Notes under the pieces: generated by a model
Databases searched by the model: none
Told to the model about the DNA's origin: nothing
What the model saw: only the letters and a program-made list of their open reading frames with translations
Shown here: positions 904-8,027 of the stretch, piece after piece
Numbering within the stretch: the stretch's first letter is position 1
Layout: each line of letters opens with the position of its first letter
Origin: an uncultured delta proteobacterium
GTDB taxonomy: Bacteria > Desulfobacterota > Binatia > UBA9968
Length of the DNA stretch: 64,000 nt
Reading direction: 5' to 3'
Assembly: GCA_963727625.1 (NCBI GenBank)
Contig: CAVSHR010000002.1
Location: forward strand, 384,001-448,000
Program-made: the position numbers and the translations under genes

Positions 904-1647
904 TTAGCGTTTCTTGCGCTTTAGCGTGAGGCTGTAGCTGAAGATGTCGCTCCGGTAAAATCCCAACGTGAGCAGCAATAAATTCTTTCTGTGGAAATAA
1001 TATCTCTTGACAAAAAGTACCGGTGAGCCCGGCGAGATCCCCAGATAGGATGCCGCGTCGTCGTCGGCGAGTTTTGCTCCAACCAGATGCTTCACGTCAC
1101 TGATCGTAATAGGCAACACGGACTCGATGGCACTGGAAAGAGGCAGCGTGAGCAAGCTTCGCGGAGAGAGCTTAGTCGCGACCCCTGTCGGGACGTAGGA
1201 ATGTACATATGCCAGAGCTTGCCCGCGCGCCAATCTCGTCCGCGTTATCCGTGTTATCGTATCCCCTTCGGACAGGTCAAATTCTCTTCGTATGTTTTCC
1301 GTTGGCTTGAGATTCTCCGTCCGAAGAAGCTTGAAACTCGTGCCCTCTAGATTCAGCGTGACTAGAGTTTCCGCTTCGATCTCCAAGTTGATTGCTTGAT
1401 TGACCGGTCCGCTCCAGCTCACAAAAGTGCCCTTGGCGCGCTCGCGCCGGACGAGTCCCTCCTGAGCCAGTTGGCCCAGCGCTTGACGCACGGTGATGAC
1501 GCTCACGCCCAGGTGCCGGGCAAGATCCAATTCGCCAGGGAGCTGAAAGCCTCGACTCCATGTTCCGGAAAGAATGTTGTCGCGGATCTCCGTCATGACT
1601 TTGAAATAGAGCGGCACGGGAGAGCCCGATCTTTTGGCGAGGCGCAT
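904..1647 (-). CDS. GntR family (HutC/UTRA) transcriptional regulator
   Basis: PLYFKV..LPGELDLARHLGVSVITVRQAL..GLVRRERAKGTFV wHTH plus UTRA-like C-terminus. Confidence 0.92.
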   Translation of the reverse strand: MRLAKRSGSPVPLYFKVMTEIRDNILSGTWSRGFQLPGELDLARHLGVSVITVRQALGQLAQEGLVRRERAKGTFVSWSGPVNQAINLEIEAETLVTLNLEGTSFKLLRTENLKPTENIRREFDLSEGDTITRITRTRLARGQALAYVHSYVPTGVATKLSPRSLLTLPLSSAIESVLPITISDVKHLVGAKLADDDAASYLGISPGSPVLFVKRYYFHRKNLLLLTLGFYRSDIFSYSLTLKRKKR

Positions 1648-1761
1648 GTCGGTGACCTATAATTCGCCGAGAGCGGTCAATTGGCGGGATCCTCCGGCGA
1701 GTGTTTTGCGATCTTAAACCATCAAAGCTCAAACTCTCGATTCAGCCGCTGACCCCTAGAC

Positions 1762-2253
1762 CTACGCACTCTGAGCCTTTCTCTTCTTGAAGAACTGGAT
1801 ATGGCTCAAGGCGTCGGCGGCAACGATGCGCCCGATGGGGCCGATGCTGTACGAGGCATCGCAGACCTTTCTGTCCGAGTCGAGGATGAAATTCGTCGCG
1901 TGAATGATCTTTCTGCGCTCTTCCCAAAAGGCACCGATCTTGTCGGCGTCTCTCGGCACTTCGAGGCCATAGGCCGCGGGAAAGGTAAGCTGCAATTTTT
2001 CTACGGTCTCTTTCGCTTTGTCGAGGGGGTCGACGGATAGGGCGACGACGTCGACATTTTCTTTTTTGAACTCTTCGATATGCGATTGGTAGTCGGCTAA
2101 CTGCCGCATGCAGTACGGTCACCAACTGCCGCGATAAAAGATGAGAACCGCATATTCACCCGTGAGGTCCCGGGGAATTCGGACAGTTCGCCCGTCGACG
2201 GTTTGAACTTCATATTCAGGGAAAAGGTCGCCAGAGTTGAGTTGTCGTGCCAT
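1762..2253 (-). CDS. Peroxiredoxin-like (AhpC/TSA/redoxin) selenoprotein, UxxC; in-frame TGA at 2121-2119
   Basis: GGAGGG-ATG at 2253 gives MARQLNSGDLFPEYEVQTVDGRTVRIPRDLTGEYAVLIFYRGSW-TGA-PYCMRQLADYQ..., in frame with ORF 1762..2109; family motif is FYRGxWCPYC. Confidence 0.9.
2094..2118 (-). promoter_or_regulatory. Putative SECIS of the Prx-like gene
   Basis: CGGC-AGUUA-GCCG; loop starts 17 nt after UGA, same register and AG-start loop as the AhpD SECIS hairpins; stem only 4 bp. Confidence 0.55.
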
Positions 2254-2552
2254 ATGCCCTCCGTGAGAAGTTAGTGGTCAAACTTCGATATCACGCACCG
2301 TTGCAACATCATTACACAAACTTCGGGTTAAACTGCGTTGTTGTCATCGGTTCGGTTGGCCGCGTATGTTGACTGCTTATATGATTAGTAGTAGGAGGTC
2401 AATTGGTTTGCAGCGCCGGCGCGAGCGCGGTTTCGTCGAGCGCGCCGGCGCCGAATCGCCGCCGATCACGACCGAGGCAAGCTTGAACGAAAGAAGCTCG
2501 CCGCGATTACGGGCAATGACGGTTTCGCGTCGAAAACGGAAAAGGCAGGGCC

Positions 2553-2849
2553 ATGATTGATCTTTACTACTGGACCACGCCGAACGGTCACAAAATCACG
2601 ATCTTTCTCGAAGAGGCGGCGCTGCCCTATTCGATCGCCGACATGGCCAGCTATCCCTGGATCGTGCCCCATGAACGGCATAAGCAAAAGCTCGACGAGT
2701 TTTCGAACTTGAATCGCTGGTTTCTGGCCATCGGGCGGCGACCCGCCGTGCAGCGCGCCTATGAATTGGCAAAAACGATCAACACGAAGCCGACGGTCAA
2801 CGAGGATTCGAAGTCCATCCTTTTTGGGCAAGGGAGGCGCTCGGTATAA
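2553..2849 (+). pseudogene. Internally deleted glutathione S-transferase (YfcG/YghU-like)
   Basis: N-terminal MIDLYYWTTPNGHKITIFLEEAALPY joined directly to C-terminal SIADMASYPWI..RPAVQRAY; most of the GST body is missing. Confidence 0.8.
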
Positions 2850-2939
2850 GTGTGGTGGGTTTGGAATCCACCTGTCTTCGACAACCGCCCGCCCGAAGCC
2901 GCAAGCTAAGCTTAGTCTGAGCCGAAAGGAGGAAGTTCG

Positions 2940-3611
2940 ATGCCGTGGATAAAAATTATACCCGAGCATGAGGCCGAGGGTGAGCTGAAAGAAGTCTATC
3001 GAAAGATAAAAAAACAACGCCAGGATGAGAAGATCAATCAAGATCGTGACGCAGGCCCCGGCGGCCCGCCCGTGAGCCCGCCGATGTTGCACAGCCTCAA
3101 TCCCAAAGCCATGTGGCACACCGCCGAGCTTATGTGGGAGATCATGCGCGGTGAGTCGCGTCTGACCACGGTGCAGCGCGAGATGATCGCTACGGTGACC
3201 TCGGCGACGCTGCACTGCCGCTTTTGAACCGTCGCCCACGCAGAGTTTCTGCGTCAGGAAGGCGGCGACGACCTGACGGCGGAGCAGGTTAAAGACGATT
3301 GGCGGCAAATGGAGTTGAGCGGAGCCGAATACGCCATGTTGGAATTTGCCGAAAAGCTCACGCTCACGCCGAGCAATATGCGCGAAACGGACGTGCAAAA
3401 ATTACACGATGCCGGCTGGACGGATCGCGACATCCTCGATATCGTCCATGTTTGCGCCTATTTTAATTTTCGCGTGCGCGTGGTCGACGGTCTTGGCCTG
3501 GAAGTCGCCGATTGGCAAGTCGAGCGCGCCCGCGCCGGTGCCGCGCGGGCGGCAGAAATCGCGAAAGAGCGCGGTGTGACGATGCCGGCCGATCCCTGGA
3601 AAGTACGTTGA
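2940..3611 (+). CDS. AhpD/carboxymuconolactone decarboxylase-like selenoprotein 1 (CRFU); TGA at 3225-3227
   Basis: REMIATVTSATLHCRF-TGA-TVAHAEFLRQ continues in frame into ORF 3309..3611 (FAEKLT..AYFNFRVRVVDGLG). Confidence 0.92.
3228..3270 (+). promoter_or_regulatory. Putative SECIS (AhpD-1)
   Basis: Upper stem ACGCAG(3238-43)/CTGCGT(3249-54), loop AGTTT; lower stem CGTCGCC/GGCGACG. Confidence 0.75.
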
Positions 3612-3621
3612 GGATTGCATC

Positions 3622-4269
3622 ATGAGCTTCATCAAAGTCGTTCGCGAATCGGAGGCGACCGGCGAGCTTCAGGAAGTTTACGAGCGGACGCTCAGCCGAT
3701 TGAGCCCTTCGGTGCGCCAGCGCCGCGGCGACAAGCTGCCGCCCATCGTCAGGATTTTCAGTCTCTGCCCGGCGCTGCTCGAAGCGCGGGTCGGTTTCGA
3801 CAAGGGCATCTATCGCCCCGGCCATTCCGGTTTGGGCCGGCGCAAGGAGGAGCTCATCGCCACGCAGGTGGCGGCGCTGAGCGGCTGCCGGTTTTGAGGC
3901 ATCGGCCACGGAGAGTTTCTCCGTGTCGACGGCAAAATGGCGGTGGAGGAAGTCGCCAAAGTGATCTCCAACTGGCGCGAGGCGGATCTGGACGAACAGG
4001 AGAAGGCCATGCTCGCGTTCACGGAAAAATTCACCCTCACGCCGAGTCAGATCACAGACGCCGATATCGAGGCGCTGCGCCGGGCGGGATTCGGCGAGGA
4101 GCAAATACTTTCCATCGCCCTGGGCGCCGGTTATCGAAACTGGGTGGATCGCATCGCCGATCTGCTCGGCGTCGAAGAGGAAAAATTCGACTTCCCCGAG
4201 GAAATCTTGAAAGCTTTCGGGGTAACGCGCGAGCAGCTTCAAACTTCGCTCTACGGGGATGACCGATGA
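3622..4269 (+). CDS. AhpD-like selenoprotein 2 (CRFU); TGA at 3895-3897
   Basis: KEELIATQVAALSGCRF-TGA-GIGHGEFLRVDGK continues in frame into ORF 3937..4269. Confidence 0.92.
3898..3929 (+). promoter_or_regulatory. Putative SECIS (AhpD-2)
   Basis: ACGGAG(3908-13)/CTCCGT(3919-24), loop AGTTT; extension TCGGC/GTCGA. Confidence 0.75.
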
Positions 4270-4718
4270 GCCGCTTGCAAATGGCCGCGGGAAAGAAACT
4301 CGAAAACTTGCTCGGCGCGGCGCCGGGCGCGCTTGAAGCTGACAGCGCGATGCGCACCCTGCTGATCGATCAATTGACACCGCGACTCTACAGTTTGATC
4401 GGCGTTGTGGTCGCCGGTTGTCTGCGTTGCGAAAAGTTCGTCGAAGCTCTGCGCGGGCCGCTGGACAATACTTTTGTTGCTCAAGCCGCGCGTGATTGGC
4501 GCGCGCTTGAACTCACGACGGTGGAAAAGGCAGTGCTGGCCTACGCGGAAAAAGGCACCATGGACGAGGCTTCGGTGCGCAAAGGGGAGATCGACGAGCT
4601 GCGCGCAGCCGGTCTTAGCGATCGAGACGTGTTATTGACCGCCACCGCGATCGCCTATCACAACTATTCGATTCGCATGGCGGCGGCGTTCGACGTTCTA
4701 CCGAGTGCGGGTGAATGA
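4266..4718 (+). CDS. Degenerate AhpD/CMD-fold protein
   Basis: DWRALELTTVEKAVLAYAEK..LRAAGLSDRDV..AYHNYSIR matches the C-halves of the neighbours; ATGA overlap with the upstream gene. Confidence 0.85.
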   Translation: MSRLQMAAGKKLENLLGAAPGALEADSAMRTLLIDQLTPRLYSLIGVVVAGCLRCEKFVEALRGPLDNTFVAQAARDWRALELTTVEKAVLAYAEKGTMDEASVRKGEIDELRAAGLSDRDVLLTATAIAYHNYSIRMAAAFDVLPSAGE

Positions 4719-4748
4719 CCTAAAACCGAAAAGGAAGGATATTCCTAA

Positions 4749-5654
4749 ATGCGAGGCATAACTCCCAGACGAGAGCAGGGCATGGCCGATCCGGTGTTGG
4801 CCGAGATGGTTCATGCTACGGGGGCGACGGAGTCGCGCCACTACGCGGCGGTCAAGCCGACCATCCAAGCCTATCGCGCCAGTTGGGTGAAGCTCGCACC
4901 CTATCGAGATGGTCCCGTCAATTCGAATCGGGTGGCGGTCGACGATCCGGTGGCGATGACCGCTCAGGTCAAGGCAAAAGCATCGGCGTTGGGCGCCAAC
5001 CTGGTCGGGGTCTGTCGTTTGCAGCCGCATATGATCGATCTCGGTTCGGAATTGCCGCATGAATTCGTCATCGCGTGCTGCGTGGCGGAGGATTATGAAA
5101 AAGTCACTCAAGGGCCGGATGCGGTCGAAGAAGAAGCCATGCGGACCTATGCGAAATGCACCGAGATCGCCACGGATCTGGCCGCCTACGTGCGCGACCT
5201 GGGCTATCCCGCCATCGCCCATCACAACGGCGCCAGCGAAGTCCAGGCGATCCCGATTTTCTACCAGGTGGGCTTCGGCGAGCTGGGCCGGCACGGCAGT
5301 CTGATCAACGAGAAATACGGCGCGAGCTTCCGCCCGGGATTCGTGACCACGGACCTGCCGCTGGTGGAAGACCATCCGCGGGAATTCGGCGTGCAGGACT
5401 TCTGCATGACCTGCAACGTCTGCCAGCGCAACTGCCCGGGCGACGCGATACCGCAGGATCATGTCGTCACCCACGGCATCAAACGCTGGCTGATCGATCT
5501 GGAGAAATGCTACCCCTACTCGCGCTTGCGCGAAGAGTACTGTCATCTCTGCGTCGACGCCTGTCCGTACATCGTGAAGTCCTATCCCGAAACCTACAAA
5601 GCCTTCATGAAAGAGCGCAAGCAAGTGGGCTACAAAACGCCGAAGACCTATTGA
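4749..5654 (+). CDS. Reductive dehalogenase/epoxyqueuosine reductase-like cobalamin and 2x[4Fe-4S] protein, no signal peptide
   Basis: LGANLVG, LGYPA, GFGELGRHGSLINEKYG, VTTDLPL, CMTCNVCQRNCP and C-x10-CHLCVDACP. Confidence 0.85.
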   Translation: MRGITPRREQGMADPVLAEMVHATGATESRHYAAVKPTIQAYRASWVKLAPYRDGPVNSNRVAVDDPVAMTAQVKAKASALGANLVGVCRLQPHMIDLGSELPHEFVIACCVAEDYEKVTQGPDAVEEEAMRTYAKCTEIATDLAAYVRDLGYPAIAHHNGASEVQAIPIFYQVGFGELGRHGSLINEKYGASFRPGFVTTDLPLVEDHPREFGVQDFCMTCNVCQRNCPGDAIPQDHVVTHGIKRWLIDLEKCYPYSRLREEYCHLCVDACPYIVKSYPETYKAFMKERKQVGYKTPKTY

Positions 5655-5660
5655 ACTTTT

Positions 5661-5870
5661 ATGGAAAAACTCTACGTCAACGAAATCGGCCCCGATGGCC
5701 ACGTGAGCACCGCAGGCTTGTTCTATTCGCTGGCCGAGGCGCAAAGGATCGTCGAAATGCTGCGCGCCAATCCCGAGCGAGCGGGCTATCGGTATGAAAT
5801 CGTCGAGGCGGTGCGGCATACCTTAACCGAGAAGCAGGCGAATCCGACCGCGACCGCGCAGAAGGAGTGA
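5661..5870 (+). CDS. Small hypothetical protein within the operon
   Basis: 69 aa; fills the gap between flanking genes and overlaps the next start (GTGA); host-like codons. Confidence 0.6.
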   Translation: MEKLYVNEIGPDGHVSTAGLFYSLAEAQRIVEMLRANPERAGYRYEIVEAVRHTLTEKQANPTATAQKE

Positions 5871-6424
5871 CCATGCCCTATATCAAAACCGTGCCGCCGG
5901 CCGAGGCCACCGGCAAGCTCAAGGAAGTTTACGAGTCCGGCTCCGGCCCGTCCGCGGCGCGCGGCAAGGTGTCGATGATCCGCCAGGTGCAAAGCCTCAA
6001 CACTGACAACCTCGCCGCCTGGCGCGCGCTCGACGTGTCGATCATGCGCGGCGAGTCGCGCATCACCCGGCGCCAGCGCGAGATGATCGCCACGGCGGTG
6101 TCGTCGACCAATCATTGCAGCTATTGAATGACCGCCCACGGAGAGGCTCTCCGTACCGAATCCAATGACGACCCGCTGGTCGAAGGCATCAAGCAGGATT
6201 ACACCCGACTGGATCTGCCGCCCGCCGAGCGCGCGATGCTCGACTACGCTGTCAAACTAACGGTGGCGCCGTCGACGGCGAATGAAGCGGATATCGAGAA
6301 CCTACGCGCCCACGGTTTCGATGATCGCGATATCTTGGACATCGTTTACGTCATTTGCCTTTATAACTTCAACGACCGCATGGCGGACGCCACCGGTATT
6401 ACCGGGCATGATTTTTTTAAGTGA
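5867..6424 (+). CDS. AhpD-like selenoprotein 3 (CSYU); TGA at 6125-6127
   Basis: REMIATAVSSTNHCSY-TGA-MTAHGEALR; ORFs 5867..6127 and 6128..6424 abut in frame (start may be ATG 5873). Confidence 0.92.
6128..6154 (+). promoter_or_regulatory. Putative SECIS (AhpD-3)
   Basis: ACGGAG(6138-43)/CTCCGT(6149-54), loop AGGCT. Confidence 0.72.
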
Positions 6425-6469
6425 GTCATTTATTCACCGAGCGTCGCACTCGGTAAGATTGGAGAAAGC

Positions 6470-7015
6470 ATGAGCAAGTCGCCAGGGAAGATCGATCGCG
6501 CAGCGTTTCGCGAGGTGCATAAACAGCAGCAAGAGCGGGCCAAGCAAGGCCCGGAAGGATACACAACGACAACACGAGCTGTGATCCGGCTCATTGAAGG
6601 TCAATTGAAAGAAGCCCGCATCGGCGAATATACCATCCAGTGCGACGAGGCGAAGTCGCGCAAGGGCGGCGGCAAGGCGCCTTCGCCGCTGCAGTACTTC
6701 GTCGCGGCGACGGGATTTTGAATGTTCAGTCAACTGACGCGGTACGCGTCGCAACTGGACATCGAGATCGAAGACGCCGAGATGGACATTCGCATGACCT
6801 ACGACACCCGCGGCAAGCTGCTGCTCGCGGACGTGCATCCGGGCTGCCGCGAGCTGACCTACGTATTCAAGATCAAGAGCTCGGCGCCGTCGGAGAAGGT
6901 TCAGGAGATGCTGCGGCTGATCGAAAAAGGCTGCCACACGATCAATTCTTTGAAAATCCCGGTGCCGGTGGCCGGAAAGTTGATTCACAACGGTCAGGAA
7001 ATCGCCGCGCCGTAA
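6470..7015 (+). CDS. OsmC/Ohr-like selenoprotein; TGA at 6719-6721
   Basis: DEAKSRKGGGKAPSPLQYFVAATGF-TGA-MFSQL...EKGCHTINSL; TGA replaces the first OsmC Cys, second Cys retained. Confidence 0.92.
6722..6762 (+). promoter_or_regulatory. Putative SECIS (OsmC)
   Basis: Lower stem ATGTTCAGT/ACTGGACAT; upper stem GACGCG/CGCGTC with GTA loop. Confidence 0.75.
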
Positions 7016-7079
7016 AACTTAGCCAGACGCAATTGAAATTCTCTGTTGCCTCGGACTTTAGGGAATCGGCACATGATGC

Positions 7080-7158
7080 CCCTCGCAAAGGCGCAAAGAC
7101 GCCAAGTTTGGAGAAGTACGAAAGAGTTTTCTTTGCGCGCTTAGCGCCTTGGCGAGGG
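7080..7158. repeat. REP-like imperfect palindrome
   Basis: CCCTCGCAAAGGCGCAAAGACGCCAAG ... CTTTGCGCGCTTAGCGCCTTGGCGAGGG. Confidence 0.6.
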
Positions 7159-7241
7159 AATGAGTCTTGAACTCAATCTTTTAGGCCTCTCGGACGGAAG
7201 ATCCAAGGAGCGAGTTAAAACTGGCTCAGAAGGAAGTATTC

Positions 7242-8027
7242 ATGATTGAGCTCTACCACAACGACATGTCGGTCTGCGCCCAGAAGGTGCGCTTCGCCCT
7301 CGCGGAGAAAAAACTTTCATGGGACGGCCATCACATGAATCTCCGCGCCGGTGATCAGCAAAAGCCGGAATATTTAAAGCTCAATCCCAACGCGGTGGTG
7401 CCGACGCTGGTGGATGACGGCACGGTGATCATCGAGTCCACGGTGATCAACGAGTATCTCGACGACGCCTATCCCGAACCGAGACTCAAGCCGGCGGACG
7501 CCGCCGGACGCGCGCGCATGCGGCTCTGGACCAAGCAACTCGACGAAGGCGTGCACGCGGCTACCAGCGTGGTCAGCTCGGCGATCGCGTTTCGCTATCA
7601 GAAGCTCGCCATCGGCATGGAAGCCCTCGAAGAATTTCACAAGAAAATGCCCGACCCGGTGAAGCGGGAGAAGAGCTGGGAGAATGTCACCAAAGGCGTC
7701 GAATCGCGTTTCTTTCCCGAAGCGATCATGCGCTTTGAAAAGCTGCTCGCCGACATGGAAACAACTCTGGGAGATTCGCCATGGCTCGCCGGCAACGAAT
7801 TTTCGCTCGCGGATATCGGTTTCGCGCCCTACATCACCCGGCTCGATCACTTGCAATTGCAGTTTCTCTGGGACAAGCGGCCGCATATCCCCGACTGGTA
7901 CGATCGCCTGCGCGAGCGGCGGGGTTACACCGAAGCGCTGGAAAAATGGTTCAATCCGAAATATCTGCCGCTAATGAAAGAAAAGGGGCTGGAAGCTCGC
8001 GACCGAGTCAAAGAGATCGTCGGTTAG
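7242..8027 (+). CDS. Glutathione S-transferase family protein
   Basis: LYHNDMSVCAQKVRFAL, LNPNAVVPTL, IESTVINEYLD, WLAGNEFSLADI. Confidence 0.93.
   Translation: MIELYHNDMSVCAQKVRFALAEKKLSWDGHHMNLRAGDQQKPEYLKLNPNAVVPTLVDDGTVIIESTVINEYLDDAYPEPRLKPADAAGRARMRLWTKQLDEGVHAATSVVSSAIAFRYQKLAIGMEALEEFHKKMPDPVKREKSWENVTKGVESRFFPEAIMRFEKLLADMETTLGDSPWLAGNEFSLADIGFAPYITRLDHLQLQFLWDKRPHIPDWYDRLRERRGYTEALEKWFNPKYLPLMKEKGLEARDRVKEIVG

Follow-up and report, generated by a model that had tools for sequence, protein, structure and literature searches.

Three AhpD-like selenoprotein genes of an uncultured Binatia bacterium very probably carry ordinary bacterial SECIS hairpins within their coding sequences

In Escherichia coli, the UGA codon of fdhF is followed by a selenocysteine insertion sequence (SECIS) whose minimal 17-nucleotide (nt) upper stem-loop lies about 11 nt after the UGA and carries a bulged U and a GU loop. 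The model of bacterial SECIS elements (bSECIS; bSECISearch, Zhang and Gladyshev), as described in the text of a 2026 review (PMC13188914), places a hairpin directly downstream of the UGA in the coding region, with a loop of 3-9 nt, an upper stem of 4-16 base pairs (bp), a minimum free energy (MFE) of -7.5 or lower, a G in the first two loop positions, mostly as N1-G-[G|U]-N-N2, and a spacing of 16-37 nt. A passage of PMC4605307 gives a stem of 6-8 bp and places a conserved loop G some 20 nt beyond the UGA, while the relevant passage of the review PMC8704476 counts the bulged U and GU among the conserved SECIS features. The first AhpD-like selenoproteins, bearing a CxxU motif and a SECIS prediction, were described in 2005 in Sargasso Sea data (PMC1088965), 299 such sequences are reported from Global Ocean Sampling data in the text of PMC1088965 and PMC2398784, and the 2026 review includes an entry worded 'AhpD-like protein, TIGR01926, CxxU' (PMC13188914). 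Here we analyzed 64,000 nt of DNA from an uncultured delta proteobacterium of the Binatia (assembly GCA_963727625.1, contig CAVSHR010000002.1, positions 384,001 to 448,000; this whole stretch is called the window), in which three paralogous AhpD-like genes, A, B and C, each contain an in-frame TGA followed by a short hairpin. The genes, their selenocysteine (Sec) codons and their hairpins are located in the window as follows:

2940..3611, + strand: AhpD-like selenoprotein gene A, 223 amino acids (aa), motif C-R-F-U-TVAH, TIGR01926 127.9 bits, Pfam CMD
3225..3227, + strand: Sec-UGA of gene A, in frame, aligned with Cys/TGA of homologues
3238..3254, + strand: SECIS hairpin of gene A, ACGCAG-AGUUU-CUGCGU, -8.2 kcal/mol, resampling 1.7%
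3622..4269, + strand: AhpD-like selenoprotein gene B, 215 aa, motif C-R-F-U-GIGH, TIGR01926 94.5 bits
3895..3897, + strand: Sec-UGA of gene B, in frame, aligned with Cys/TGA of homologues
3907..3925 (6-bp form 3908-3924), + strand: SECIS hairpin of gene B, (C)ACGGAG-AGUUU-CUCCGU(G), 8 bp when closed, -11.0 kcal/mol, resampling 0.9%
5873..6424, + strand: AhpD-like selenoprotein gene C, 183 aa, motif C-S-Y-U-MTAH, TIGR01926 141.1 bits
6125..6127, + strand: Sec-UGA of gene C, in frame, aligned with Cys/TGA of homologues
6138..6154, + strand: SECIS hairpin of gene C, ACGGAG-AGGCU-CUCCGU, -8.4 kcal/mol, resampling 2.9%

The three hairpins are very probably canonical bSECIS elements lying inside the coding sequences of three paralogous AhpD-like (TIGR01926, CxxU) selenoprotein genes; they are real and under selection, and they represent the usual kind of SECIS for bacteria, in a selenoprotein family that was already known. 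Genes A, B and C each exceed the curated TIGR01926 cut-off of 81.8 bits, their mutual identity is only 35-42% (tblastn), and in each of them the in-frame TGA stands at the second cysteine (Cys) of the CxxC-xxx-H motif, giving CxxU followed by xxxH. An earlier sequence-only reading of the stretch had described a UGA, 10 nt, a 6-bp stem and a 5-nt loop beginning with AG in all three genes, and the sequence confirmed this layout, with a distance from TGA to hairpin of exactly 10 nt and the loop G at +18 in every case. RNAfold paired the outermost loop bases as well, resulting in stems of 7-8 bp with GUU or GGC triloops. The terminal TGA stops of genes A, B and C (that of gene A is an ordinary TGA at 3609-3611) showed no SECIS-like hairpin downstream of them.

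Like the E. coli fdhF SECIS, the three hairpins are located close behind the UGA at a nearly equal distance, starting 10 nt after it as against 11 nt in fdhF, and they share its short upper stem and a loop start of A-G-[G/U]. Unlike it, they have perfect stems of 6-8 bp without a bulged U, and the G-U of the fdhF loop is present in genes A and B, whereas gene C has G-G. Compared with the bSECIS model in the text of PMC13188914, the hairpins fall within the limits whether they are read as a 5-nt loop on 6 bp or as a 3-nt loop on 7-8 bp, their loops AGUUU, AGUUU and AGGCU fit N1-G-[G|U]-N-N2 with pairable N1 and N2, and the bare hairpins reach -8.2, -11.0 and -8.4 against the MFE bound of -7.5. 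The spacing of 16 nt in the 6-bp reading, or 17 nt in the 7-bp reading, lies at the lower limit, and the position directly downstream of the UGA in the coding region is that of the model. Since the published model, in the text cited, does not list a bulged U, its absence here is normal. The genomic context used in bSECIS prediction, a UGA aligned with Cys of homologues and the presence of selA, selB, selC and selD, was likewise found. What sets these elements apart from bSECIS in general is their place at the extreme short end of the spacing range and a hairpin sequence unusually fixed within the gene family. The earlier reports on the AhpD-like family (COG2128/TIGR01926), as far as their text describes it, show the same profile, the same CxxU and a SECIS prediction whose small loop contains G; the present locus differs from them in having three paralogues in tandem, within a genome of soil or sediment type, next to genes for peroxiredoxin-like (Prx-like) and OsmC-like selenoproteins.

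Homologues were collected by two routes. In a pattern scan that covered one genome per species, 601 stretches matched and 525 of them encode relatives; from the best 80 came 79 loci, which together with the window genes made 85 rows, with TGA at the aligned codon in 65 and TGC/TGT in 20. A profile search of 121 same-phylum genomes returned 36 places beyond the genome under study, from which 20 were taken (all 15 above the cut-off and 5 below it); 19 contained the motif (5 TGA, 14 Cys), and L135, without it, was dropped. The combined set comprised 70 Sec and 34 Cys rows, and in 70 distinct homologous sequences the TGA falls at the position of the catalytic Cys. The stem formed by +11..+16 and +22..+27 was complete (6/6) in 48/70 Sec rows but in 0/34 Cys rows. 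In ungapped alignments 87.6% of the stem cells of the Sec rows were paired, compared with 35-52% in slid controls, and 0 of 500 shuffles reached this value; the Cys rows gave 44.6%, inside their own slid-control range of 15-47%. The hairpins had been taken for SECIS elements from the sequence, with the remark that Cys homologues keeping the hairpin equally well would speak against it; no Cys row keeps it, and the contrast between the two forms, together with the agreement with the published model, upholds the assignment.

The pairing was also maintained through base changes. At stem pair 2, 61 rows had C-G and 5 had U-A; records titled Anaerolineaceae, Bacillus, Acidobacteriota and Halanaerobiaceae account for four of these five. 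For pair 4 the counts were 49 G-C and 9 C-G, and for pair 5 they were 36 A-U and 30 G-U. Within the window, GCA/CTG in gene A against GGA/CTC in genes B and C corresponds to a C-G to G-C swap at pair 4. The compensatory Ala/Gly-Leu change pointed out in the sequence-only reading is a true swap that recurs across homologues, and the covariation check proposed there returned both C-G/G-C and C-G/U-A swaps in Sec rows. Among the 48 full hairpins, loop position 2 was G in 47 and position 3 was G or U in all 48.

Codon usage was then considered, as the earlier reading had claimed a forced choice of CGT over CGC. In 871 long open reading frames (ORFs) of the genome, CGT accounts for 11.1% of Arg codons and CGC for 47.5%, GGA for 12.5% of Gly and GCA for 9.1% of Ala; all three AhpD-like stems use CGT, and it is these rare codons, GGA/GCA and CGT, that form the stems. 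The choice of CGT extended to the Sec rows, with Arg+9 encoded by CGT in 46/61 Sec rows vs 3/23 Cys rows. Gly+5 was GGA/GGG in 50/52 Sec rows vs 3/17 Cys rows, and Leu occurred at +8 in 70/70 Sec rows but only 11/34 Cys rows. Since the stem is spelled by His (CAC), Gly or Ala (GGR/GCR), Leu (CUC/CUG) and Arg (CGU), the RNA constrains both the codon choice and the peptide H-[GA]-x-x-L-R.

The genome contains the complete Sec machinery, with selA (607 bits), selB (397 bits), selD (377 bits) and tRNA-Sec (76.7 bits) each above its cut-off. The genes selA, selB and selD are contiguous on contig 5 (715112-719466), with one in-frame TGA inside selD, and tRNA-Sec is found on the same contig about 49 kb from them (768830-768920). 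A hairpin-blind scan of the genome for TGAs with coding signal on both sides returned 38 sites, 12 of them family-supported. Stems of 5 bp or more under a G[G/U] loop that starts at +16..+28 were present at 11/12 family-supported sites vs 1/26 other TGA sites, for which individual inspection covers the stop at C2:389652 only; the background rate of such hairpins was 8% of 4707 Cys codons. Twenty further candidates all had a family match with E <= 1e-5 spanning the TGA, and 6 of them were above curated cut-offs. At least 5 uninterrupted pairs under the loop were seen at 23/25 candidate Sec sites of the genome, a figure biased by the choice of the 20 extra sites, the majority of which came from a list already filtered for hairpins.

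On this basis we infer that SelB binds hairpins A, B and C and that the UGAs are read through with Sec. With the UGA in the ribosomal A site, the hairpin, starting 10 nt downstream, would lie at the mRNA entrance; SelB, loaded with GTP and Sec-tRNA(Sec), would dock on the apical G-[G/U] loop via its C-terminal winged-helix domains and would deliver Sec instead of allowing termination at the UGA. The presumed mode of recognition, winged-helix domains on the hairpin loop, resembles that of Moorella thermoacetica SelB, whose WH3-4 domains with a SECIS hairpin (PDB 1WSU) are cited in the text of PMC4605307.

Several observations weigh against this interpretation or soften the numbers behind it. 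The position-locked stem is incomplete in 22/70 Sec rows, many of which have other hairpins further downstream, and RNAalifold over all 70 Sec rows gave no consensus structure. The cell counts and the Mann-Whitney p-value overstate independence, since the rows are related and the counts are not independent events. The Cys homologues mostly belong to a more distant subfamily with another peptide (HGAAVR, HTAALK), so that the Sec/Cys contrast partly reflects protein divergence, which the codon-level and within-gene controls offset just in part. Support from a curated RNA model is missing because Rfam holds no matching family: a search of window positions 1500-7500 at E <= 10 gave four chance-level matches and no SECIS family.

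The same-site hairpin was found in Sec forms from records titled Binatia, Chloroflexota, Gemmatimonadota, Calditrichia, Acidobacteriota, Bacillus and Halanaerobiaceae. We tentatively consider that this nearly fixed 17-nt SECIS (UGA-N10-ACGGRG-NGKNN-CUCCGU), occurring in at least seven higher taxa, might be a portable minimal element suited to diverse SelB proteins, or else that the Sec form and its SECIS spread together by repeated horizontal gene transfer; this is a possibility rather than our expectation. A family-wide 17-nt consensus was not found stated in the literature text on AhpD-like selenoproteins (figures not covered).

The sequence-only reading had instead seen a compact, lineage-specific SECIS. 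A new class of this kind, read by a specialised SelB of the lineage, would agree with the spacing of 16-17 nt at the lower edge of the published 16-37 (text of PMC13188914) and with perfect stems lacking the bulged U that the passage in PMC8704476 calls conserved, but it is very unlikely. The hairpins fit the general bSECIS model in all four of its measures as given in that text, and their presence in Sec homologues of at least seven higher taxa, by record titles, largely refutes it: the hairpin is specific to a gene family and spans phyla, and is therefore not lineage-specific. Other Sec sites of the same genome, family-supported ones included, carry unrelated stems from +17 to +23 with loops such as GUA, GGU, GGC, GUG, AGUG and CGGGA, among others. 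The pattern TGA-N10-12-stem-AGNNN-stem, which had been proposed as a genome-wide selenoprotein finder, gave 103 hits in the genome (52.6 per 1e5 TGA), no enrichment over the same pattern anchored on all 64 trinucleotides (median 47.9, range 29.9-60.0), and just 5/103 hits lie in selenoprotein genes; derived from a single genome, the AG-loop pattern is not usable for that purpose. A covariance model built from the AhpD-like family (R1; 45 positions, 6 pairs) recovered from the genome only the three AhpD training sites and a 23-bit match at C7:134998, outside any open frame.

Slightly less probable still is that the hairpin is a by-product of the active-site peptide H-G-E-x-L-R without RNA function, the UGA being read in some other way. 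The stem does lie inside a conserved motif right behind CxxU-xxx-H, and one Cys form with a similar peptide (L081, HAEALR) pairs 5/6. When the same peptides were recoded with synonymous codons drawn at genome frequencies (3000 draws per gene, local fold scored over +8..+33), however, only 1.7% (A), 0.9% (B) and 2.9% (C) of draws folded as stably as the real sequence. It is exactly at the stem positions that the rare codons are used; the remainder of these genes lacks the preference, with CGT at 10.5% of Arg, GGR at 40.8% of Gly and CTC at 32% of Leu. Where the peptide of a Cys form would allow the stem (HGAELR, HGALLR), the codons are GGC/TTG/CGC and pairing reaches only 3-4/6. Sec forms in which the locked stem is missing frequently show a different hairpin a few nt downstream, its loop rich in G, for example GACCTC-CGGGCC-GAGGTC from +18/19 in HA[ED]DLRAEV forms or CGGCGCG-GTC-TGCGCCG from +13 in HHRRGLRRL forms. 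That the in-frame TGAs are true stops, pseudogenes or assembly errors, with the hairpins acting for example as attenuators, asks for nothing beyond the default meaning of TGA but has a negligible probability in view of the TGA opposite the catalytic Cys in all 70 homologous sequences, the frame that stays open and matches the family profile before and after the TGA, and the complete Sec machinery.

The three AhpD-like genes belong to a group of five selenoprotein genes within 5.3 kb (window 1762-7015), namely one Prx-like, three AhpD-like and one OsmC-like. A 69-codon ORF is also included in this interval, and its remaining features are:

1762..2253, - strand: Prx-like selenoprotein gene, motif S-W-U-P-Y-C, Sec-UGA 2121-2119, Pfam AhpC-TSA 82.1 bits
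2094..2106, - strand: weak candidate SECIS of the Prx-like gene, CGGC-AGUUA-GCCG, 4 bp only, below the 5-bp minimum of the stem test
4266..4718, + strand: truncated AhpD-like paralogue D of Cys type (CLRC), C-terminal half only, TIGR01926 47.7 bits, below cut-off
4749-5654: gene for a reductive-dehalogenase-like iron-sulfur (Fe-S) protein, TIGR02486 119 bits, below the cut-off of 160
6470..7015, + strand: OsmC-like selenoprotein gene, Sec-UGA 6719-6721, NF041052 OsmC_like_Se 145 bits, cut-off 95
6735-6751, + strand: hairpin of the OsmC-like gene, UGACGCG-GUA-CGCGUCG, from sequence and fold

Paralogue D has no UGA and was negative in the test for a SECIS-like hairpin. The stop of gene B and the start of paralogue D overlap (ATGA, 4266-4269), an arrangement that suggests translational coupling. 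In a record titled Candidatus Binatia (L021, L031), a single contig carries orthologues of genes A, B and C in a span of about 6.5 kb. As for the Prx-like gene, the loop AGTTA (2102-2098, minus strand) indeed begins at +17, as had been stated, but the stem beneath it, 2106-2103 paired with 2097-2094, has only 4 bp and makes it a weak example; folds of 45-60 nt reached -6.3 to -7.4 kcal/mol. The flanks of the 79 loci supplied a single orthologue (L062) and the genome itself a single paralogue (C4:691988), too few sequences for a decisive comparison of hairpins: the paralogue has a good 6-bp hairpin with a GGU loop, while the window gene and L062 have just CGGC/GCCG. Taken as a whole, the sequence-only reading was partly supported.

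In total, 26 candidate selenoprotein genes were counted in the genome, 5 in the window, 20 elsewhere and selD. The candidates elsewhere include SelL-related, YciW-related, OsmC-like (two), GrdB-like (two), UGSC (three) and PrdB-like proteins, a rhodanese of the LYCAU type, a deiodinase-related protein, several Prx-like proteins and a distant AhpD. Also present in the genome is a MetE-like protein (L115; contig 3, 159959-161125, minus strand; PRK06520 239 bits, below the cut-off of 313) with a single in-frame TGA in FGFHI-U-RGNQ, where five paralogues of the same genome have Cys, followed by the SECIS-like hairpin GGCAGCC-GGU-GGCUGUC. The terms 'methionine synthase', 'MetE' and 'homocysteine' are absent from the text of the 2026 selenoproteome review, and this protein may represent an unlisted selenoprotein family. 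A further locus (L110; contig 7, 197639-199405, minus strand) is a frame of 589 residues from stop to stop with a UGSC-family match of 58.6 bits, below the cut-off, and an in-frame TGA in GVGH-U-STC; the local fold amounts to -17.3 kcal/mol, a simple stem-loop rule found no SECIS-like hairpin, and the gene may use a different SECIS geometry.

These hairpins leave the knowledge of how bacterial SECIS elements work unchanged. In practical terms, annotation should treat the UGAs of genes A, B and C as Sec codons and not as stops, and the genome, rich in candidate selenoprotein genes, provides a useful test set for SECIS models. If the hairpin were a portable element, it would be a minimal, bulge-free SECIS that encodes only H-G-x-x-L-R and is accepted by very different SelB proteins. 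For the AhpD-like family itself, the three genes offer a clean and well-controlled case of an RNA signal that constrains both the codons and the peptide in the active-site region of an enzyme.

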